DNA of 64,000 nt from a phage. The notes under the pieces were generated by a model that did no database searches, had not been told where the DNA came from, and saw only the letters and a list, made by a program, of their open reading frames with translations. The DNA lies in sequence record PZ019086.1; one strand, 5' to 3'. How positions within the stretch are numbered: the stretch's first letter is position 1; each line of letters opens with the position of its first letter. Shown piece after piece: positions 9,696 to 59,938 of the stretch. A program made the position numbers and the translations under genes.

Positions 9696-10166
9696 TTAAT
9701 CATGTTTCCACACCCCATCGGTATTTGACCAAAGTCGCTGATTATCTGATCCTCGCCACAGCTTTTTGGTCGGAAGATTTTTCTCATACTTCCCATCAAT
9801 AATAACATCAACATATTTAAGCATTTCTAGTTGTTTAATATCTTCAAACTTATATCCTGTCCACAACCAAATGCTTTTATTTGGATAAAGATTTTTTACT
9901 GTTTGAACAATGCAATGAATAACATCTCGGTTATCAGGATAAAGAGGGTCACCTCCAGTTATAGTTAATCCTTCTATATAATCATTATTCAAACATTCAA
10001 TTAATTGTTCTAGTGTTTCACCAGTAAATGGAACGCCATTTCTAGCATTCCATGTTGATTTATTATAACACCCTTCACATTTATGCAAACAACCTGTAAC
10101 GAAAAGAACGACCCTGCAACCAGGGCCATTCACAAAATCGCAAGGATAAAATCTATCATAATTCAT
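9696..10166 (-). CDS. nrdG: Anaerobic ribonucleotide reductase activating protein (radical SAM)
   Basis: 156 aa; CxxxCxxC motif CLHKCEGC; directly downstream of nrdD. Confidence 0.85.
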   Translation of the reverse strand: MNYDRFYPCDFVNGPGCRVVLFVTGCLHKCEGCYNKSTWNARNGVPFTGETLEQLIECLNNDYIEGLTITGGDPLYPDNRDVIHCIVQTVKNLYPNKSIWLWTGYKFEDIKQLEMLKYVDVIIDGKYEKNLPTKKLWRGSDNQRLWSNTDGVWKHD

Positions 10167-11980
10167 TGGTGTTTAACCCTATGCATGATTTCTTTATTTT
10201 TGCCGAGATTAAATCCACGTTCGTTCGGATTTCCCAAATAACCGCAAGTTCTTCTTATTGTGTTCATCTTTTTAGGATCAGTTTCTCCACAAATAGAACA
10301 AACAAATCCGTTTTCAGTAGGAGTCATTTCATGGGTACTTCCACACGTAAAACATTTATCTACTGGCATATTAACACCAAAATAATCTAAATGTTGTGCA
10401 GCATAATCCCATACAGCCTCAAGACCTTTTAGGTTATTTTTCATATCAGGAAGTTCAACATAAGAAATGTGACCACCTGTCGCAATGAAATGATATGGTG
10501 CTTCACGAGAAATCTTTTCAAACGGAGTAATATTTTCTTCTACTGAAACATGGAAACTATTAGTGTACCAGCCTTTATCAGTAACATCTTTTACACTTCC
10601 ATATTTTTCGGTATCAAGTTTACAGAAGCGATAACAAAGGTTTTCAGCAGGTGTAGAATACAAGCTAAAAGCAAAACCAGTTCTTTCAGTCCACTGCTTA
10701 AGACGAGCATTCATTTTAGTTAAAATTTCTTGCCCAATATCACGTCCGACAAGAATATTCAATTCGTGAATACCAATGTATCCTAAGGACACTGAACTTC
10801 TACCGTTTTTAAATAACTCAATTATGTCGTCATCAGGTTTAAGACGAACCCCGAATGCACCTTCTTGGTAAAGAATAGGAGCAACAGTCGCTTTAACTCC
10901 TTTTAAGGAACTAATTCTACACATCAAAGCTTCAAAACACAAATCCATTCGTTCATTGAACAATTCGGCAAATTTCTGTTCATTGAATTGTGTTCCAATA
11001 TAAGAATCTAACGCAATGCGAGGAAGATTCAGCGTTACAACGCCAAGATTATTACGTCCATCAAGAATTTCATTACCAGTCGAATCTTTCCATACGCTTA
11101 AGAAACTACGGCAACCCATTGGAGAAACAGGAATAGATGAACCGGTGATAGCTTTATTGTTCTTAGCTGAAATAATATCAGGATACATTCTTTTGCTTGC
11201 ACACTCTAGAGCAAGCTGCTTAATATCATAGTTCGGATCGTCTTTATAAAGATTAACACCTTCTTCAACAAACATAACAAGTTTAGGGAAAATAGGAGTT
11301 ATCCCATCACGACCAAGACCTTTAATACGATTTTTCAGAATTGCTTTCTGAATCATTCGTTCAGTCCAGTCAGTTCCCGTACCAAATGTAATTGTTACAA
11401 AAGGCGTTTGTCCGTTTGAACTAAAGAGAGTATTTACTTCATATTCATAAGCTTGGAATGCATCGTATACATCTTTTTCTGTTTTAGATTGGGCATAATT
11501 CAACGCATCAGCGATTTGCCATTTTTCTGCATCCTCAATATGTTTTGCGTATGTGCGTTTAACATAAGGAGAAAGTACTTTATCTACATTAGCAAAAGTC
11601 GTTCCGCCGTACTGATGTGAAGCAACCTGTGCGGTAATTTGTGCCATAATTGCAGTAGCAACGCCGATTGATTTAGGAGTTTCAATCTGTGCATTACCGA
11701 GCTTAAATCCGTTTTCAAGCATTCCTTTTAAATCTACTAAACAGCAATTAGTAAATGGAAGAGCAGGGGAATAATCAATATCGTGGAAATGGATAATTCC
11801 GCTTTCATGCGCTTTCATAATAAAAGACGGGACCATATTTTTGGCAATGTGTTTAGACACAATACCAGCCATAAGGTCCCGTTGAGTTGGAAAAACACGA
11901 GAATCTTTATTAGCATTCTCGTTCAAAAGGTCTTTATTAGTTTTATGAATCAATCCTTCAATTTCTTTTTCAATTGTCAT
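10163..11980 (-). CDS. nrdD: Anaerobic ribonucleoside-triphosphate reductase, uninterrupted
   Basis: 605-aa continuous ORF; C-terminal glycyl-radical motif RRTCGYLG and a Zn-ribbon cysteine cluster. Confidence 0.9.
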   Translation of the reverse strand: MTIEKEIEGLIHKTNKDLLNENANKDSRVFPTQRDLMAGIVSKHIAKNMVPSFIMKAHESGIIHFHDIDYSPALPFTNCCLVDLKGMLENGFKLGNAQIETPKSIGVATAIMAQITAQVASHQYGGTTFANVDKVLSPYVKRTYAKHIEDAEKWQIADALNYAQSKTEKDVYDAFQAYEYEVNTLFSSNGQTPFVTITFGTGTDWTERMIQKAILKNRIKGLGRDGITPIFPKLVMFVEEGVNLYKDDPNYDIKQLALECASKRMYPDIISAKNNKAITGSSIPVSPMGCRSFLSVWKDSTGNEILDGRNNLGVVTLNLPRIALDSYIGTQFNEQKFAELFNERMDLCFEALMCRISSLKGVKATVAPILYQEGAFGVRLKPDDDIIELFKNGRSSVSLGYIGIHELNILVGRDIGQEILTKMNARLKQWTERTGFAFSLYSTPAENLCYRFCKLDTEKYGSVKDVTDKGWYTNSFHVSVEENITPFEKISREAPYHFIATGGHISYVELPDMKNNLKGLEAVWDYAAQHLDYFGVNMPVDKCFTCGSTHEMTPTENGFVCSICGETDPKKMNTIRRTCGYLGNPNERGFNLGKNKEIMHRVKHQ

Positions 11981-12964: not shown

Positions 12965-13069
12965 TTAAGTCATTTATCGTTGGTTCATTATATACTGTTT
13001 CTTCATCAGTGTAAACCGGTTCTTCCGGCTCTGGCTCTACTGTTTCCCATCTAGCCGCCCACCAAGGTT

Positions 13070-13390
13070 TTATAGCGTAATCCATTCTCGTACTGTCTGA
13101 GTTACTACACGTTCACGGGGCTCGACTAGTTCAACAGTCGGAACTGCATAATACCAGTCAGAATGGTAAGAACCTGAGCGAGATTCATTTACAGACACAT
13201 GAACGTTATGTTTTGGACTAAAATAAACGCACTGCCGATATTGGCATTTGCCATCTTGTACCCAATCTTCTATTTCGACAGGTTTAAGATAGTCTGAAAA
13301 ATCAAAATCATAATTTTCTGAAAATGCATCATGGTCTTCGATGATTTCGCTCAGAACTGCATCAACATCTAATTTATTTTCAATAGTCAT
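13070..13390 (-). CDS. Hypothetical protein
   Basis: 106-aa ORF. Confidence 0.5.
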   Translation of the reverse strand: MTIENKLDVDAVLSEIIEDHDAFSENYDFDFSDYLKPVEIEDWVQDGKCQYRQCVYFSPKHNVHVSVNESRSGSYHSDWYYAVPTVELVEPRERVVTQTVREWITL

Positions 13391-21464: not shown

Positions 21465-21535
21465 CAGTTGATAGTTGTATAGTACCATAAAGCTTTATGC
21501 TTGTAAACCGTTTTGTGAAAAAATTTTGAAATAAA
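21465..21535 (-). promoter_or_regulatory. T4-type early promoter
   Basis: cagttgatagttgtatagtaccat...tgtaaaccgttttgtgaaaaa. Confidence 0.5.
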
Positions 21536-21538
21536 AAA

Positions 21539-21556
21539 GGGAGCCCGAAGGCTCCC
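21539..21556 (-). terminator. Stem-loop with CGAA tetraloop
   Basis: gggagcccgaaggctccc palindrome after the stop of ORF 21559-22569. Confidence 0.4.
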
Positions 21557-28311: not shown

Positions 28312-28655
28312 CTAGTACTCAATCCTCGATTATAAGAATCTACCAAACGGTCAACCATTGAATGACAAGCGGCTTTATCTTTCTCCTCCGCAACTGAACA
28401 TTCTAAGGTATTCCACTTTTTAGCATATCGTTTTAATAATGTATCGTTTTTGTATCTGCTTGATTTATCTCTTTCTCCGTCTTTATATGCATATATTAAT
28501 TTCTGCGCAAATTCAGCTTGGCATGCTTTATTTTTCCCACAATAATCCGCGGCAGTACGGTTTACATATTCTCTAATTTCAGTATATGATGTATCTGCTG
28601 ACGCAGAAGCAGAAAATGAAATTAATCCTACACATAAAACCAAAATTTTAGTCAT
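28308..28655 (-). CDS. Secreted/periplasmic small protein with signal peptide (size and position correspond to T4 vs)
   Basis: 115 aa; N-terminus MTKILVLCVGLISFSASASA. Confidence 0.4.
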   Translation of the reverse strand: MTKILVLCVGLISFSASASADTSYTEIREYVNRTAADYCGKNKACQAEFAQKLIYAYKDGERDKSSRYKNDTLLKRYAKKWNTLECSVAEEKDKAACHSMVDRLVDSYNRGLSTR

Positions 28656-29193
28656 TTACTATTTCCAACAGTTTATTATTTTTAAGGTAGTTAGCCTTTT
28701 CTAGGACTTCAGAAGCATATTTAGAACCTGCTTTAACATTCCATCCCGAATTATAAGAGGATATTGCTTTTCTTATATCGCCCTTATGTATATTTAACCA
28801 ATAAGAAAGTTCAATGTATGCCCAGGAAGCTGAATTGGACCGTTTATTCAACATTCTTTTTATTTCAGCATCAGTCATATTATAACCAAGTTCCTTAACT
28901 CTTGCTCGCATGGTTGGCAAATAATTTTGGAACATTCCGTAGGCGTGATGCTTTGGTTTAGATTTTAAATTAACTCCGGCAGAGCTTTCTTGCCATAAAA
29001 TAGCAGCCATTATATGACCCAATCCGCTCTTGTGGATATTTTTGTGTGTTTTATATTTTCCATCCTTAGAAAATTGTTCCCCGAATTGATATGCGTAGCG
29101 CATGTTATCGAGTTGGACATTACTGAAAGTATGCTCGGAGCTATGTGCCATCATTGAAATGGCCAATAGACCAGCGAGTAGTGCTTTTCTCAT
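28648..29193 (-). CDS. Periplasmic lytic-transglycosylase-like protein (SLT-domain motif) with signal peptide
   Basis: 181 aa; signal peptide; ILWQESSAGVN...AYGMFQ resembles the SLT catalytic region. Confidence 0.5.
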   Translation of the reverse strand: MRKALLAGLLAISMMAHSSEHTFSNVQLDNMRYAYQFGEQFSKDGKYKTHKNIHKSGLGHIMAAILWQESSAGVNLKSKPKHHAYGMFQNYLPTMRARVKELGYNMTDAEIKRMLNKRSNSASWAYIELSYWLNIHKGDIRKAISSYNSGWNVKAGSKYASEVLEKANYLKNNKLLEIVND

Positions 29194-29200
29194 GCTTACC

Positions 29201-29662
29201 TCATTGAGTTTTAATTACTGCTTTAGAAGCCTTTCCTGGTAAACGACGACTGTTGATAATTGCCATCCTGCACTGAAGTGACGGGTCTTTGAACTTCGCA
29301 TTAGGTTTACAAACTGTAAATCCAAGCCAAAGATTTCCATCTGTGATTTCTAAACGTCCAGGACGGTATTCAACTCCATCAATAAAATCCTCGTCAATGT
29401 CAGGACGCGGAGGCATACTCAGGAATTCATTAACTTCTAAAACATGGTCTTTTATTTTATGGAATAATTCAAAAACATATGTCTCATCAATCTCCCGTTG
29501 AATTGCGCGATCAAGAAGATGTTGAGAATATTTTAGATGAAACGATGAGACCCCTGCTGCTTTTGATGCCTCACGAATCTCATTGTTAATTTGACGAAAC
29601 TCCGACTCAAAGTGACGACGGAGCTTATTTCGACGGATAAAAACTTCTGTGTTGATAGTCAT
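29201..29662 (-). CDS. regB: Endoribonuclease RegB
   Basis: 153 aa; MTINTEVFIRRNKLRRHFESEF... matches my recollection of T4 RegB; position matches. Confidence 0.8.
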   Translation of the reverse strand: MTINTEVFIRRNKLRRHFESEFRQINNEIREASKAAGVSSFHLKYSQHLLDRAIQREIDETYVFELFHKIKDHVLEVNEFLSMPPRPDIDEDFIDGVEYRPGRLEITDGNLWLGFTVCKPNAKFKDPSLQCRMAIINSRRLPGKASKAVIKTQ

Positions 29663-29721
29663 GTTATTCTCCTCTTAACTGATAGAAAAATTATACCACA
29701 GTCAAGAGGAAAAGTAAACAG

Positions 29722-30042
29722 TTATTCTTTAAATCTAATCAATTTATTCATAGACTTTGTAACTTCTGCACGAACCTCATGTAGGTTTTTAAGCTGTTCA
29801 AGACGCTGCTCATAGTAAGCAATTTCATCTTCTTCGAGACAGTCCTGCGAATCTTCTTTAAGATAACGTGCATAGTCCTGGAAAGCTTTACGGACTACTT
29901 CCCGGAAGTCATCAAGACTTTGAATTTTCTTAGGAGCAACAGATACACGACGAGGGGCAGTATAATACTCATAACCAAACCCTGCGCTTAATTGAGCCAT
30001 TAATATTTTTCCTCTGGTTGGAACACAGCACGACAAGCCCAC
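29722..30042 (-). CDS. Hypothetical protein
   Basis: 106-aa ORF. Confidence 0.5.
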
Positions 30043-30302
30043 ATACTGGCTTCTTTGAGTTTCGTTTTAGCAATAGTTAACTGATCAAGACTTTCAGCAT
30101 AATTCTTCGCGAATTCACAGTCTTCACAATTATCTAGTGCTTCCCAGAATTCATCGTATAAAGCGTCAAAGATAAGTCCTAAACGAACTTCAGCGTCTTT
30201 GATAGCATTCACTTTACCGATTTTCTCTTCAGTATGTGGTTTATAACCCTTAATATCTTCAATCATATTTGACTTCCTCGCCAGTACCCAAATCATATTC
30301 AA
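30000..30302 (-). CDS. Small helical protein at the map position of T4 vs.4 (Acb2, cyclic-oligonucleotide sponge); true start probably an internal Met
   Basis: Position three genes downstream of regB; size about 90-100 aa; identity by synteny only. Confidence 0.35.
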
Positions 30303-30480
30303 CTAAACGAATAGGTTCATGAATGCCATATCCCTGAACAGAAATTTCTGTCGTAGGATAAATTCCATCAATATCACCCATATTCCAGGCTTCATTAAAT
30401 TGCTGTTCGCCTGAATTACTAAACCACTCGGCGAAAGCATTTAGCACATCTTCAGAACCTTCAATAATTATCTTTGCCAT
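30259..30480 (-). CDS. Hypothetical small acidic protein
   Basis: 73-aa ORF. Confidence 0.45.
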   Translation of the reverse strand: MAKIIIEGSEDVLNAFAEWFSNSGEQQFNEAWNMGDIDGIYPTTEISVQGYGIHEPIRLVEYDLGTGEEVKYD

Positions 30481-30842
30481 TACAAACTTTCAGTAAAGGT
30501 ACGAGCGATAACGTCGCGCTGCTGTTCCGGAGTCAGAGAGTTAAAGCGAACTGCATAACCGGATACACGGATGGTCAGCTGCGGATATTTTTCCGGATGC
30601 TTAACTGCATCTTCCAGAGTTTCACGACGCAGAACGTTAACGTTCAGGTGTTGACCACCTTCAATTTTAACTGTAGGTTGTGTTTCAATTTCAATTTCGC
30701 GGGCATGCAAACCGTAGAAAATTTCCGGGTCTACAAAAGAGTCCTCTTTAAAGGTTTTAGAAACGATAATTCGTGCTTGAATACCATCTTCAAAATAAAT
30801 AGTACCTTTATGTGTGCCTTCAAGAATTTGATATGCTTTCAT
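30480..30842 (-). CDS. Autonomous glycyl-radical cofactor protein (GrcA/YfiD-like)
   Basis: 120 aa; C-terminal half ...[59 protein letters not shown] with the RVSGY glycyl-radical motif; locally GC-rich DNA. Confidence 0.8.
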
Positions 30843-30849
30843 ATAAACC

Positions 30850-31227
30850 TCAATTAGAAAATAAATTTATCCAGGATTGTTCTTTAATTAAAAACGGCTC
30901 AGAATCATATGCCATTAAACTTTGGGTAATTAATCCTTTAAAAGGTCCATCAATAAATTCCATGGTAAAATATGGAATTTTATTCATTAGCCGTGCATTA
31001 GGAGCAGTGCACAAAACTCTGCATCCTTTGAATACACCTTTTTGTAATTTGTATTGCTTGGGATAAAATTCGCTTAAAATGTTATTATTTGCTAAAATTT
31101 CAAAATGATTCACCAATTTATTTTTAATAGTTTTTGGCGAAAAATAAAGATATTCGAAAAGCTGAGTGTCTGTCATCATTGCATTCCGATTACGAAAAAC
31201 TGTGGACGAGTAATACCACCAATGCAA
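30850..31227 (-). CDS. Hypothetical protein
   Basis: 125-aa ORF. Confidence 0.5.
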
Positions 31228-31763
31228 CAGTTAATATTACAGCAGTGGTGTACAGTGTCAATATGGACACTATAAATCTTATCCATATCAGGAGATTTGA
31301 CAGGCTCATCAATTATATATAAAATTCGCGAAAGCGATAAACCTCTGAACTTGCTTCCTTTATTACCAATAAAACTGCGCACAGAATCAGTAAATAAACG
31401 AAAACGTATATCATCATTAGAATAACGCGAAAATTCCTTTTTAATGTTATTTGCAGAAATTTTAGCGTAAGCTGAAGTATTAGAAAGAACAATAACTGTT
31501 CCGCCATCATATAACCAATTAGCAGCAAAGTTAGTCACAGCAATTGATTTACCGGATTGACGTCCACCATCTATACGAAGTGTGCAATACTGTTTAAGTA
31601 AGTCTTCAAATGGTGGGATATAATCGTTTTTACAAATTTCTTCTACTCTAGCATCAGAATGGTGTGTAAAAGCATTCATCAGGGATAGATAAGGACCAGT
31701 TAAAAATGTTCTCATTTTGTTCTCTCTAAGTTTGGGCCATTCCGTGGCGCATGAATTGTCCAT
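31176..31763 (-). CDS. Hypothetical protein with a P-loop-like motif
   Basis: 195 aa; GGRQSGKS; C-terminal Cys/His cluster HHCCNINCC. Confidence 0.45.
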   Translation of the reverse strand: MDNSCATEWPKLRENKMRTFLTGPYLSLMNAFTHHSDARVEEICKNDYIPPFEDLLKQYCTLRIDGGRQSGKSIAVTNFAANWLYDGGTVIVLSNTSAYAKISANNIKKEFSRYSNDDIRFRLFTDSVRSFIGNKGSKFRGLSLSRILYIIDEPVKSPDMDKIYSVHIDTVHHCCNINCCIGGITRPQFFVIGMQ

Positions 31764-31892
31764 TTCTGTATTTACCCATTACCGCACTTGGGCTCGACCT
31801 TATTACAGGTTGGCGGGAATCCCTCACAGAATCATGAGGTCCAGCTTGTTCCCATTTTATTTGAATGTAAATAGGCCTATACTTAGGCCTTA

Positions 31893-32471
31893 TTAATTAC
31901 CACGGGCCGCATTAGCAACGGCGTAAGCATACTGAACATTAGCGTCTTTAAATGTACCTTTAGAGGTATCTATTTCTGCCTTAAAGCCGCCTTTAGCCAT
32001 AACATCGGCGAATTCTTTACGGAAAGCCATTGCATCGAGACCTTTCCATGATGATTTATGCTTGGCAAATTCAAGACCTGCGAAGTTGACAGCTTTAGCC
32101 AATTTATTATCAATGACCCATTTACCGGCTTTAGGCACAAACTTCGGGCCTTTTTGTTTAGAGAACAGTTTTAAATTCCAGCGACGAAGATCACTGTCGG
32201 CTTTAACAAAAGCTGCGTCTAAGTTACTAGCAACAACATCTTCAATATGAGCAAATTTAAGTCCGTCAACTTCAATATTTAAATCGGTACGCCAGCGAAG
32301 TCCTTCCCAAGCGAAAGCTTTAAAATCGGAAGCTTTTGTAGCTAAGTATCGTTCAATAGGGGCTGTTTTAGGGTCAAAGCCGTTTCCACCACGATAGTTC
32401 CACTCGTCCTTATTAATGCCTTTGGCCTTTACTACAGAAGCTTCAGCAATAAATTCTTGATACGTTTTCAT
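31893..32471 (-). CDS. ipIII: Internal protein III-like (head-packaged, injected protein) with capsid-targeting leader
   Basis: 192 aa; N-terminus MKTYQEFIAEA (capsid-targeting sequence cleaved by the prohead protease). Confidence 0.75.
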   Translation of the reverse strand: MKTYQEFIAEASVVKAKGINKDEWNYRGGNGFDPKTAPIERYLATKASDFKAFAWEGLRWRTDLNIEVDGLKFAHIEDVVASNLDAAFVKADSDLRRWNLKLFSKQKGPKFVPKAGKWVIDNKLAKAVNFAGLEFAKHKSSWKGLDAMAFRKEFADVMAKGGFKAEIDTSKGTFKDANVQYAYAVANAARGN

Positions 32472-32497
32472 TTTTGTTCCTATTGTTTTAATTCATG

Positions 32498-32812
32498 TTA
32501 TTCTTTAGGGAAGTTTTTAGAGTATGCGTCATAAAGTTTATTACCAATACGACGGAAGACTCTAGCTGCAAAACGGTTTTCAGGGTTTTTAATCATGATT
32601 TGCATCATGTAAGTTCCTGCATCCGAAAGAGCTTCTTCATAGTACCCATTAATTTCTTTAAGAGTCCTACGTTTACCACCAGGACCATCAACAGTAATTT
32701 TCCATTTACCTGTAGAAGTGCGGCTCGGTGGCTCAACTTGTTCAATCCAAATATAACCACCTTCAACGCGTTGGTTGGCGGATTCTGCAATAAATTCTTT
32801 ATATGTTTTCAT
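32498..32812 (-). CDS. ipII: Internal protein II-like with capsid-targeting leader
   Basis: 104 aa; N-terminus MKTYKEFIAES. Confidence 0.7.
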   Translation of the reverse strand: MKTYKEFIAESANQRVEGGYIWIEQVEPPSRTSTGKWKITVDGPGGKRRTLKEINGYYEEALSDAGTYMMQIMIKNPENRFAARVFRRIGNKLYDAYSKNFPKE

Positions 32813-32834
32813 TTTTGTTTCCTTATTTGTTTTG

Positions 32835-32880
32835 ATAGAGTAATTATACCATATTAATACTTAAGCGTAAACTGTTTAAG
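32835..32880 (-). promoter_or_regulatory. Early promoter (minus strand GTTTACG ... TATAAT)
   Basis: Plus strand gagtaattataccat...cgtaaac. Confidence 0.4.
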
Positions 32881-33136
32881 CTTTACCGCCAGAAATAATT
32901 CCGAAGGTGTTAAAATCATATCCAATATCGTCAACATCTACTTTAGGGCTTGCTACAACGTAAGCAATTTCACTACGTTTTGCATAGGTGTTTATTTCTC
33001 TACCATCGCCGCCTAGGAAAGAATACCCATTACGTTTTAATGAGCCAAAATCTTCGGCATCACCAACGAAAGCTTTAACTTTAAATTTGGGGCCTTTGAC
33101 ATCTGCTTCAGCGATAAATTCTTGATACATTTTCAT
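32876..33136 (-). CDS. Additional internal-protein-like ORF with capsid-targeting leader
   Basis: Starts MKMYQEFIAEA after a GGAGGA Shine-Dalgarno; about 87 aa. Confidence 0.6.
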   Translation of the reverse strand: MKMYQEFIAEADVKGPKFKVKAFVGDAEDFGSLKRNGYSFLGGDGREINTYAKRSEIAYVVASPKVDVDDIGYDFNTFGIISGGKA

Positions 33137-37895: not shown

Positions 37896-38081
37896 TTTAG
37901 GGAATTCTAGGGCAGGGAGGGGCAATTAAAGGATAGGATAATATATTATAAATGGTAGAAACTAAATGATGCCTAGAGAGGTCCAAAAAGGCCTAGATAC
38001 CAAAAAGCCCCAACCTTTCGGTCGGGGCTAAGCCTTGCGGCAACCTTGTCGGGGTTCCACCTGCTAAGGCAAGTGTTTGTA

Positions 38082-38171
38082 CGAAACGCCGGGATTCGAA
38101 CCCGGTTATTAAGCAGTTGACGCTACTCAATATTTTTAAAAGGCCATATCTCGACCATATCCGAACGTTCC
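38082..38171 (-). ncRNA. tRNA-like small RNA (acceptor-like stem plus GGTTCGAATCC T-arm, no normal anticodon arm); candidate stable 'species' RNA
   Basis: Minus-strand read ...ccgggTTCGAATcccggcgtttcg; 7-bp acceptor-like pairing CGGAACG/CGTTTCG. Confidence 0.3.
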
Positions 38172-38344
38172 GTCAAAAACGCTACTCGGCTTACGGCAAA
38201 GATATTTCCTCGAATCGATAATTCTGTGCGCCGTTTCTGCTGTGATGTAAGGGGATATTAACAAATCGTAAAGATTTATTAAGACCAGTCCTTACTCAGG
38301 GAACATCAGTCCGACGACTTACCGGTAGCGACCCGGCTTCTTGT

Positions 38345-38420
38345 CTGGTCGAGGCAGTAGGGATCGAACCTACGACCTAGGACTTAGAAGGTCCTTGCTC
38401 TTCCTTCTGAGCTATGCCTC
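38345..38420 (-). tRNA. tRNA-Arg (anticodon UCU), CCA encoded
   Basis: Hand-folded cloverleaf; anticodon loop CTTCTAA; T-loop GGTTCGATCC. Confidence 0.8.
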
Positions 38421-38424
38421 GGAT

Positions 38425-38499
38425 TTGGCGGACGTGATAGGATTCGAACCTATAACCAATCGCTTAACAGGCGATCGCTCTGCCATTGAGCTACACATC
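38425..38499 (-). tRNA. tRNA-Asn (anticodon GUU), CCA encoded
   Basis: Acceptor GGATGTG/CACGTCC; anticodon stem ATCGC/GCGAT; loop CTGTTAA. Confidence 0.7.
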
Positions 38500-38503
38500 C
38501 AAA

Positions 38504-38590
38504 TTGGTGGGGAGTGATGGAGTCGAACCACCCGAGTCGCAATGACAATGGATTTACAGTCCACACCGCTACCTCTACGGGATAACTCCC
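38504..38590 (-). tRNA. tRNA-Tyr (anticodon GUA), long variable arm, CCA encoded
   Basis: Acceptor GGGGAGT/ACTCCCC; anticodon loop CTGTAAA; 87 nt. Confidence 0.7.
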
Positions 38591-38603
38591 CTTAATTCTT
38601 AAT

Positions 38604-38678
38604 TTGGTGGCCCTGGGTGGAATTGAACCACCATCTGGCGATTATGAGTCGCTTGCTTGAACCTTCCAGCTACAGGGC
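38604..38678 (-). tRNA. tRNA with anticodon CAU (Ile lysidine-type or elongator Met)
   Basis: Acceptor GGCCCTG/CAGGGCC; anticodon loop CTCATAA. Confidence 0.7.
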
Positions 38679-38679
38679 C

Positions 38680-38755
38680 TTGGTGCTGATTGACGGAATC
38701 GAACCGCCGACCTTCTCATTACAAGTGAGTTGCTCTACCTACTGAGCTAAATCAG
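38680..38755 (-). tRNA. tRNA-Thr (anticodon UGU)
   Basis: Acceptor GCTGATT/AATCAGC; anticodon loop CTTGTAA. Confidence 0.8.
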
Positions 38756-38760
38756 CAAAA

Positions 38761-38850
38761 CTGGCGGAGGCGATAGGATTCGAACCTATGAGTCGCTGGA
38801 GCGACTGCCGGTTTTCAAGACCGGTGCATTAAACCACTCTGCCACGCCTC
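38761..38850 (-). tRNA. tRNA-Ser (anticodon UGA), long variable arm
   Basis: Acceptor GGAGGCG/CGCCTCC; anticodon loop CTTGAAA; 90 nt. Confidence 0.8.
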
Positions 38851-38852
38851 CA

Positions 38853-38926
38853 GTCTCCGTGGCAGGATTTGAACCTGCGACATTCTGCTCCCAAAGCAGA
38901 CGCTCTACCAAACTGAGCTACACGGA
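38853..38926 (-). tRNA. tRNA-Pro (anticodon UGG), CCA not encoded
   Basis: Acceptor CTCCGTG/CACGGAG; anticodon loop TTTGGGA; the next tRNA follows immediately with no CCA. Confidence 0.75.
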
Positions 38927-38936
38927 GTAAATTAAA

Positions 38937-39010
<74 letters not shown>

Positions 39011-39015
39011 CAAAT

Positions 39016-39102
39016 TTGGTGCGAGAAGTGGGACTCGAACCCACAAGGAAATCATTCCGCAGCATTTTAAGTGCTGTGCCTTTACCAATTTGACCATTCT
39101 CG
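39016..39102 (-). tRNA. tRNA-Leu (anticodon UAA), long variable arm
   Basis: Acceptor GCGAGAA/TTCTCGC; anticodon loop CTTAAAA; 87 nt. Confidence 0.8.
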
Positions 39103-58358: not shown

Positions 58359-59938
58359 GTAATAATACATACCAACACGTTTCTAATGAATCTCGCTATG
58401 TAAAATTTGATCCAACTGGCACAAATTTTCCAGCAGAGATTACTGATGTTCAGGCTGCTATAGCAGCCATTTCTCCTGCTGGTGTAAATGGAGTTCCTGA
58501 CGCATCATCAACAACAAAGGGAATTTTATTTCTTGCCACTGAACAGGAAGTTATCGATGGAACTAATAATACCAAAGCAGTTACACCAGCAACGTTGGCA
58601 ACAAGATTATCTTATCCAAACGCAACTGAAACTGTTTACGGATTAACAAGATATTCAACCAATGATGAAGCAATTGCCGGAGTTAATAATGAATCTTCTA
58701 TAACTCCTGCTAAATTTACTGTTGCCCTTAATAATGCCTTTGAAACTCGTGTTTCAACTGAATCATCAAATGGAGTTATTAAAATTTCATCTCTACCGCA
58801 AGCATTAGCTGGCGCAGATGATACTACTGCGATGACTCCATTAAAAACACAACAGTTAGCTATTAAACTAATTGCACAAATCGCTCCTTCTGAAACCACA
58901 GCTACCGAATCGGACCAAGGTGTTGTTCAATTAGCGACAGTAGCTCAAGTTCGTCAAGGAACCTTAAGAGAAGGCTATGCAATTTCTCCTTATACGTTAA
59001 TGAATTCTACTGCTACTGAAGAATATAAAGGCGTAATTAAATTAGGAACACAATCAGAAGTTAACTCGAATAATGCTTCTGTTGCGGTTACTGGCGCAAC
59101 TCTTAATGGTCGTGGTTCTACAACGTCAATGAGAGGCGTAGTTAAATTAACTACAACCGCCGGCTCACAGAGTGGAGGCGATGCTTCATCAGCACTAGCT
59201 TGGAATGCTGACGTTATCCACCAAAGAGGTGGTCAAACGATTAATGGAACACTTCGCATTAATAATACGCTCACAATAGCTTCAGGTGGAGCAAATATTA
59301 CCGGAACAGTTAACATGACTGGTGGTTATATTCAAGGTAAGCGTGTTGTAACACAGAATGAAATAGATAGAACTATTCCTGTTGGAGCTATTATGATGTG
59401 GGCGGCAGATAGTCTTCCTAGTGATGCTTGGCGCTTCTGTCATGGTGGAACTGTTTCTGCGTCAGATTGCCCATTATATGCTTCTAGAATTGGAACAAGA
59501 TACGGTGGAAGCTCATCAAATCCTGGATTGCCTGACATGCGTGGTCTTTTTGTTCGTGGCTCTGGTCGCGGCTCTCACTTAACAAATCCAAATGTTAATG
59601 GTAATGACCAATTTGGTAAGCCTAGATTAGGTGTAGGTTGTACCGGTGGATATGTTGGTGAAGTACAAAAACAGCAGATGTCTTATCATAAACACGCTGG
59701 CGGATTTGGTGAATGGGATGATTCTGGAGCATTCGGTAATACCCGTAGATCAAATTTTGTTGGTACACGTAAAGGACTTGACTGGGATAACCGTTCATAC
59801 TTCACCAATGATGGATATGAAATTGACCCAGCATCACAACGAAATTCTAGATACACACTAAATCGTCCTGAGTTAATTGGAAATGAAACACGTCCATGGA
59901 ACATTTCTTTAAACTACATAATTAAGGTAAAAGAATGA
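58355..59938 (+). CDS. 12: Short tail fibre protein gp12
   Basis: 527 aa; Gly/Thr/Ser/Ala-rich fibrous repeats. Confidence 0.9.

Follow-up and report, generated by a model that had tools for sequence, protein, structure and literature searches.

An exact copy of E. coli grcA in the 3' half of the T4-type phage gene vs.6, and its probable repeated conversion by the host gene

The question raised by this locus is whether part of a small phage gene was copied from the host and, if so, whether this happened once or repeatedly. The gene is the open reading frame (ORF) at positions 30480-30842, on the minus strand, of a 64,000-nucleotide stretch of phage DNA (sequence record PZ019086.1), and this whole stretch is called the window in what follows. 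The ORF starts with ATG, encodes 120 amino acids, and was recognized from the ORF list, synteny, and domain matches as an autonomous glycyl-radical cofactor similar to GrcA. It is the known T4-type gene vs.6, whose product is Y06I, and both the gene and its function are already known. It was found here that vs.6 is a chimera in which an old phage-specific 5' half is joined to an exact copy of Escherichia coli grcA in the 3' 178 nucleotides (nt). Our reading as a whole is that vs.6 encodes a spare part for a glycyl-radical enzyme, that its 3' half was copied from the host, and that gene conversion from host grcA has taken place repeatedly, and we give it a probability of about 80%.

The two halves of vs.6

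When vs.6 of the window was aligned directly with the common B-type allele of E. coli grcA, an unbroken run of 178 nt at 30487-30664 on the minus strand (gene positions 179-356, codons 60-119) was 100% identical. This block encodes the structured glycyl-radical domain and includes the RVSGY motif at amino acids 92-96 (30555-30569, minus strand), which an earlier note on this DNA had read correctly and in which the codon of the glycine, Gly95, lies at 30558-30560. The run ends at the 3' junction (30480-30486, minus strand), where the phage has AGT TTG and the host has AGC CTG, two synonymous mismatches at 30485-30486, and these are followed by a stop codon that phage and host have in common. 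The last 60 residues of the protein are identical to those of E. coli GrcA at 60 of 60 positions, which is a closer likeness than the earlier note had described. In a BLAST search against 5426 complete E. coli genomes grcA was matched in all of them, and the match covered only gene positions 179-363, the 3' half, at 98.4-98.9% identity. The 5' half (30665-30842, minus strand, codons 1-59/60) is phage-specific and indeed divergent, as had been noticed. When phage residues 22-60 were aligned with residues 28-67 of E. coli GrcA (also named YfiD, P68066), 13 of 40 residues (33%) were identical with a pairwise E value of 6e-6, and phage residues 1-21 had no match in E. coli GrcA. The phage protein is also 7 residues shorter than GrcA. 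The suggestion that the gene holds a recent host-derived segment is thus borne out by the identity of 178 nt at every position, synonymous sites included, next to a half that is specific to phages.

As a control for the length of the exact run, 6495 pairs of bacterial grcA genes with 78-86% identity were examined. Their longest exact runs had a median length of 17 nt and reached 48 nt at most, whereas in the window the run is 176-178 nt. RB16, an E. coli phage of the Pseudotevenvirus group, encodes the same 60 residues, yet 31 of 180 nt differ from E. coli grcA and the synonymous divergence (dS) is about 2. For the same encoded protein the identity to E. coli grcA is therefore 149 of 180 nt in RB16 and 178 of 178 nt in the window. 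Because the synonymous sites of the window are identical and because RB16 keeps the protein at a dS of about 2, selection at the protein level is ruled out as the cause of the identity. The same chimera was found in about 640 independently sequenced Tequatrovirus and Mosigvirus genomes, including T4, T2, and the RB phages, and a search of the phage collection gave no phage record with a host-type N-terminal half. The exchanged tract is confined to the domain and the phage-specific N-terminal half has never been replaced.

When positions 1-25000 and 30670-55669 of the window were compared by megablast with all E. coli genomes, no other chromosomal match was found in those 50 kb except one of 52 nt, and similarities of tRNA genes to phage-plasmids were seen in addition. 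The vs.6 block is the sole place of note in at least 50 kb where this T4-type genome equals the E. coli chromosome, and it offers a clean natural marker of the recombination of a virulent phage, which degrades host DNA, with its host. The 52-nt match lies at 21490-21541 of the window, is 96% identical, and was found in one E. coli strain only, BE104, at an unannotated spot of its chromosome.

The identity of the gene as vs.6 follows from its surroundings and from its N-terminal half. The 1.3 kb around it are 97-98% identical in nucleotide sequence to Tequatrovirus genomes (T4, T2, RB phages, and vB_EcoM_G4498), and the window aligns to the region of the annotated T4T record in which vs.8 and vs.7 lie upstream of vs.6 and vs.5, vs.4, vs.3, and regB lie downstream. 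The gene thus has both the vs.8-vs.7-vs.6-vs.5-vs.4-vs.3-regB position and the phage-type N-terminal half beginning MKAYQILEG, and the statement in the earlier note that T4 encodes such a YfiD/GrcA-like protein applies to this very gene by synteny and identity. The nucleotide identity to one T4 record is 98.1%. The protein differs from the T4T copy by a single residue, Thr in place of Pro in EIEIE(T/P)QP, the few 5'-half changes relative to T4 Vs.6/Y06I are mostly synonymous, the host-identical 3' block is the same, and no functional difference is expected. N-terminal halves of the MKAYQILEG type are also found in Mosigvirus, Jiaodavirus, Karamvirus, and RB16, and vs.6 has been listed among the few ORFs kept in all T4-like genomes (PMC1524935). 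RefSeq records call the phage protein GrcA. The Pfam family PF01228 (Gly_radical) was matched at amino acids 60-101 with an E value of 2.2e-18 and 67.2 bits (cut-off 22.2), and Gly95 of the window protein aligns with Gly102 of YfiD and Gly734 of PflB. The closest solved structures are the YfiD NMR structure 6OWR, in which residues 28-127 correspond to window residues 22-120, and residues 697-759 of pyruvate formate-lyase (PFL). Compared to the C-terminal domain of PflB/TdcE, window residues 58-120 are about 78% identical to PFL 697-759, and the identity to tdcE is 75.9% at the nucleotide level, but the window protein is a stand-alone protein of 14 kDa without the catalytic barrel.

One transfer or repeated conversion

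In the phage collection queried with E. coli grcA, 639 E. coli-type phage records were at least 95% identical to it from position 199-202 onward, and in all copies from E. coli-infecting Tequatrovirus and Mosigvirus the 5' junction is identical, directly before GAAGGTGG. A junction that is alike in all E. coli phages speaks for a single recent transfer from host to phage that was then spread through Tequatrovirus and Mosigvirus by phage-phage recombination, with a separate single event in Jiaodavirus and no recurrent conversion. T-even phages do recombine freely and their flanks are mosaic, but we consider this explanation rather unlikely on the evidence that follows. The common junction is no proof of a single event, since homology between host and phage is lost upstream of it and an exchange must start there in any case. 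Between Tequatrovirus and Mosigvirus the 5' halves have a nonsynonymous divergence (dN) of 0.053 and a dS of 0.44 (dN/dS about 0.12) whereas the dS of the core is 0.13, so the two halves are not equally close to their phage homologs. To judge from its sequence, the 5' half is a module specific to phages that is old, has been kept across genera, and is under purifying selection. In both the window, which belongs to Tequatrovirus, and phiE142, which is Mosigvirus-like, the block matches E. coli without a mismatch, and yet the 5' halves of the two have different bases at 19 of 180 positions. These genus-specific differences reach to about 10 nt from the junction, and the spread of the block by phage-phage exchange would have needed very tight crossovers.

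The 3' ends of the tract also argue against one event, because they vary. The tract runs through GAA in the window and in T4, ends before GAG in most of the others, and ends before ACC GAG in PST and L004. In OES_C-2 the final two codons, too, are of the host type, and the identity of the block to E. coli grcA is 99.5%. The OES_C-2 gene (at 529-885 of its record) also has a 6-nt in-frame deletion in the phage-specific half, reading REIE-TQP, and encodes 118 amino acids. At the level of alleles, for which 13 E. coli-phage and 5 Klebsiella-phage sequences were compared with small panels of host alleles, a single site separates the PST block from that of T4, and over 172 nt the PST block matches another natural allele of E. 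coli without a mismatch. Of 14 synonymous variants in the phages, 6 match in site and base the 9 variants found in 15 Escherichia alleles, and the probability of this sharing by chance is 4e-5, or 2e-3 when only transitions are considered.

A second, host-matched case is seen in phages of Klebsiella. KPV15 and its Jiaodavirus relatives have the phage-type N-terminal half followed by a 3' block with a guanine-plus-cytosine (GC) content of 57%. A metagenome scan with Klebsiella GrcA gave bacterial loci (L169-L171) whose protein is exactly that of K. pneumoniae, GRCA_KLEP7, and KPV15 shares with them an exact run of 140 nt, or about 158 nt with one mismatch. This run starts at the same junction as in the E. 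coli phages and leaves about 25 nt between its end and the stop codon. When the phage collection was queried with K. pneumoniae grcA, 134 Klebsiella/Raoultella phage records were 90-97.6% identical and the E. coli-type phages were 86-88% identical, whereas with E. coli grcA as the query it was the Klebsiella/Raoultella phages that were 86-88% identical. The Klebsiella-type block was present in all five Jiaodaviruses examined (5/5). Their 5' halves are 98-100% identical, whereas their blocks differ by 2-8% with a mean of 5.5%. The block of Nispero is a perfect mosaic, the first third being 100% identical to one Klebsiella allele and the remainder 100% identical to another, and the last third of the KpV477 block is nearest to a third allele of Raoultella/Klebsiella type. 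Because of this mosaic, this third allele, and the near uniformity of the 5' halves, the diversity of the phage block appears to be drawn from the diversity of the hosts, which is hard to reconcile with a single Jiaodavirus event. The ORF of KPV15 (at 1501-1859) is split by a 1-nt deletion, which is either a sequencing error or the mark of a recent pseudogene, and the genes of 15882-6-2, Nispero, KP179, and KpV477 are intact and encode 120 amino acids.

Several observations weigh against the reading given at the outset. First, the number of variable sites on which recurrence in E. coli phages is based is small, and mutational hot spots could inflate the allele sharing. Second, several phages bear 3-4 private mutations that are seen in none of the 5426 E. 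coli genomes, as would be expected if the block had been acquired once. No E. coli allele is identical to the blocks of L003, O157 typing phage 6, and FL18, for which the best alleles have 1, 3, and 4 mismatches, respectively; these blocks carry private mutations or combinations. Third, Tequatroviruses isolated from Yersinia, Salmonella, and Citrobacter keep the E. coli block, which also fits a single transfer. Either conversion is infrequent or the natural host of these phages is E. coli. Fourth, no recent block is seen in the E. coli phages RB16 and L017/L018 (the latter two probably RB43), which belong to other genera, or in CC31. Fifth, the protein scored 154.6 bits, aligned over residues 20-120, against the equivalog model TIGR04365 (IPR011140), which is below its cut-off of 170 because the N-terminal half is divergent. 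Finally, the benefit to the phage that we infer below, namely formate for NrdD and an offset of the host shut-off, was deduced indirectly.

On balance, the genus-specific differences near the junction, the varying 3' ends, and the alleles in PST and Nispero make repeated host-to-phage gene conversion the likely course, as compared to a single transfer. Because of the private mutations and because of the E. coli block in the Yersinia, Salmonella, and Citrobacter phages, such conversion would be episodic and not continuous. The more specific proposal, to which we incline by a small measure, is that virulent T-even phages repeatedly overwrite the domain-coding half of the gene with the grcA allele of their current host by homologous recombination during infection. 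In the infected cell, the phage gene and chromosomal grcA would undergo homologous recombination or gene conversion and the block would enter in this way, with crossovers limited to the two ends of the conserved domain-coding stretch, that is, the GAAGGTGG junction and RTFTES. Repetition of this process would place E. coli alleles in E. coli phages and Klebsiella alleles in Klebsiella phages.

Should recurrent overwriting be true, the 178-nt block would be a self-updating, host-matched module that records the recent host species and allele of the phage, and it would provide a natural assay of gene flow from host to lytic phage. The host-matched E. coli and Klebsiella blocks could also help to infer the natural hosts of T4-like phages. 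A practical consequence concerns typing: grcA was picked as a core-gene target for quantitative PCR (qPCR) of Straboviridae E. coli phages in a 2026 typing study (PMC12845203), and because the 3' half of that gene and the E. coli chromosome are 95-100% identical, qPCR primers placed there would give a product from E. coli chromosomal DNA as well.

A comparable situation is said to have been described by Zeidner et al. in 2005 and by Sullivan et al. in 2006 for psbA of cyanophages, where intragenic recombination between host and phage reportedly takes place. There too an auxiliary metabolic gene of T4-like phages is reported to carry host-derived patches, a shift in composition, and signs of homologous exchange. 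The case described here differs in host and pathway, in that the exchanged stretch corresponds to one structural domain and has 178 nt without a mismatch, and in that the block is host-species-matched in two enterobacterial phage-host pairs. The searchable literature, which does not cover the primary T4 papers, gave no account of the mosaic in grcA, and a prior mention is possible. Host-matched and probably recurrent gene conversion at this gene is, in our opinion, a worthwhile evolutionary footnote.

Function of the protein and its link to NrdD

According to PMC8683613, which cites Wagner et al. 2001, Y06I of T4 is one of only two biochemically validated spare parts for PFL that has been cleaved by O2, and in the same account Y06I reconstitutes cleaved PFL with PFL activase. 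The spare-part function of the window protein is predicted from T4 Y06I on the basis of the one-residue difference to the T4T copy. In YfiD, residues 1-60 are disordered and promote binding to cleaved PFL and its activation, whereas residues 61-127 are a structured mimic of PFL 693-759 (PMC8683613). The host-copied tract, which corresponds to YfiD residues 67-126, begins about 6 residues inside this structured domain.

A probable course of events is that O2 cleaves host PflB at its radical glycine, Gly734, that the C-terminal domain of the small protein then docks into the damaged PflB and replaces the lost segment, and that host PflA installs a new glycyl radical on Gly95 so that PFL activity is restored. 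The phage may need its own copy because host gene expression is shut off. Keeping PFL running in the micro-oxic gut would supply acetyl-CoA, ATP, and formate, and the formate could serve as the reductant of the phage anaerobic ribonucleotide reductase NrdD, which is encoded 18.5 kb away. The earlier note was right that this phage also carries NrdD: an uninterrupted ORF of 605 amino acids lies at 10163-11980 on the minus strand and NrdG is encoded directly downstream at 9696-10166, also on the minus strand. In T4, nrdD (sunY) contains a group I intron, and nrdD of the window phage seems to be the intron-less form.

The presence of NrdD and NrdG in the window also leads to the question whether the client of the protein is something other than PflB, either the phage NrdD itself or host PflA, which a decoy could titrate. 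An early comparative paper did propose a role in nucleotide metabolism (PMC1524935), and the phage N-terminal half is unlike that of YfiD, the part which mediates binding to cleaved PFL (PMC8683613). Against this stand the reported reconstitution of cleaved PFL by Y06I and the C-terminal domain, which is that of host GrcA and resembles PFL as described above, while the radical site of NrdD, RRTCGYLG, has an unrelated context. A different client is therefore improbable, and judged from these motifs a spare-part role for NrdD is unlikely. As for the exact match of the domain to that of the host, it is either selected or a by-product of efficient recombination. Selection for a host match was considered because the domains of E. 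coli and Klebsiella differ at two residues and because RB16 has the E. coli protein without the nucleotide identity.

Direction of transfer, composition, and relatives without the block

Identity by itself shows no direction, and the reverse transfer, by which E. coli would have acquired the 3' half of its grcA from a T-even phage, has to be weighed. The core of E. coli grcA has a dS of 0.04 to the Escherichia clade, 0.39 to Citrobacter, 0.98 to Salmonella, and 0.75 to Klebsiella, and the corresponding values for the N-terminal half are 0.09, 0.54, 0.84, and 0.82. The 3' half of E. coli grcA has a GC content of 49.7%, which is bacterial composition, as against a phage background of 35%. The transfer went from host to phage because the two bacterial halves diverge in step and because of this composition. 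Moreover, Klebsiella phages bear Klebsiella-type blocks, and acquisition by E. coli from a phage is very improbable. Hardly more credible is an ancient acquisition of the whole grcA followed by freezing of the C-terminal half through strong purifying selection with no recent transfer. The domain is extremely constrained, as RB16 demonstrates with its 60 of 60 residues, but protein selection cannot fix about 40 synonymous sites, RB16 keeps the same protein at its high dS, and the block has 0 differences in 178 nt together with a host-like GC content at third codon positions (GC3). The identity at synonymous sites refutes this candidate, and the Rfam scan of 28500-33000 gave no match to an RNA element. 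An artefact in which host reads were assembled into a phage contig has nothing but the perfect identity in its favor and can practically be dismissed, since the same chimera, frame, and junction occur in the ~640 phage genomes and the junctions are in frame, with the TAA stop of vs.6 sharing bases with the ATG start of vs.5 (TAATG).

The earlier note had described the gene as more GC-rich than its flanks. This was found to hold for the 3' half only: at 30480-30664 the GC content is 47.6% against a window mean of 35.1% (standard deviation 4.5% for 185-nt windows), which is within the top 1.3%, whereas at 30665-30842 it is 34.3%, the same as the background. Composition is therefore uneven across the gene in the sliding GC analysis. 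Taken over its full length the gene has 41.0% GC and ranks no higher than the top 5.7% of 363-nt windows. GC3 rises from 0.22 in the 5' half to 0.41 in the 3' half, and the GC level of 30480-30664 is attained in four further regions of the window. In the control phage CC31, which has no host-like block, GC content also climbs from 34.5% in the 5' half to 41.5% in the 3' half, and in RB16, again without a recent host block, the 3' half is GC-richer too. About half of the GC jump can be ascribed to the amino acids that the domain contains. Because these relatives have a GC-richer 3' half without a host-like block, the jump is weak evidence, and composition alone was rejected as proof of transfer.

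A search for donors was made with phages of the RB16/RB43 type, the KP15 type (a tentative label), Karamvirus, the T5-like type, jumbo phages, and the Pasteurellaceae type against a panel of bacterial grcA genes, 81 of them taken from genomes and 80 from metagenomes. Identity to the closest gene was 70-86%, no exact run was longer than 56 nt, and no recent transfer was detectable in this panel. In RB16, CC31 (Karamvirus), and the T5-like phages the identity of the domain DNA to E. coli grcA is 70-83%, it does not exceed 86% for any sampled bacterial grcA, and no exact run is longer than 38 nt. These genes have the same family and architecture as vs.6 and they show what the gene is like without recent conversion. 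The run of 56 nt, which exceeds the control maximum of 48 nt, was between L023, a 91-kb IMG/VR contig, and L211, a Pasteurellaceae-type grcA that is 84% identical overall, and it may mark a third case of host-derived sequence, shorter than the other two, in a phage whose hosts belong to another group. A separate observation is that the last 180 nt of full-length PflB/TdcE-like ORFs in IMG/VR (L076 and L079-L082) are 88.9% identical to the bacterial grcA of L201 with an exact run of 101 nt, which suggests that pflB/tdcE and grcA have undergone gene conversion within the genome of some enterobacterium.

Among the other features, a Shine-Dalgarno sequence, GAGG, was read from the sequence at 30848-30851 on the minus strand, 5 nt 5' of the ATG of vs.6. 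Promoter-like sites were as frequent as expected from shuffled sequence and were not used. Elsewhere in the window, short GC peaks at 12994-13206 and 59055-59589 (48-50% in 185-nt windows) are at least as high as the vs.6 block, and the first of them had no E. coli match in the megablast of 1-25000. The GC maximum of the window is at 37906-39025, where 185-nt windows reach 54%. At about 38440-38600 lie tRNA genes that have 83-90% identity to the tRNA clusters of E. coli phage-plasmids, and the region 37906-39025 is presumably a T4-type tRNA gene cluster.

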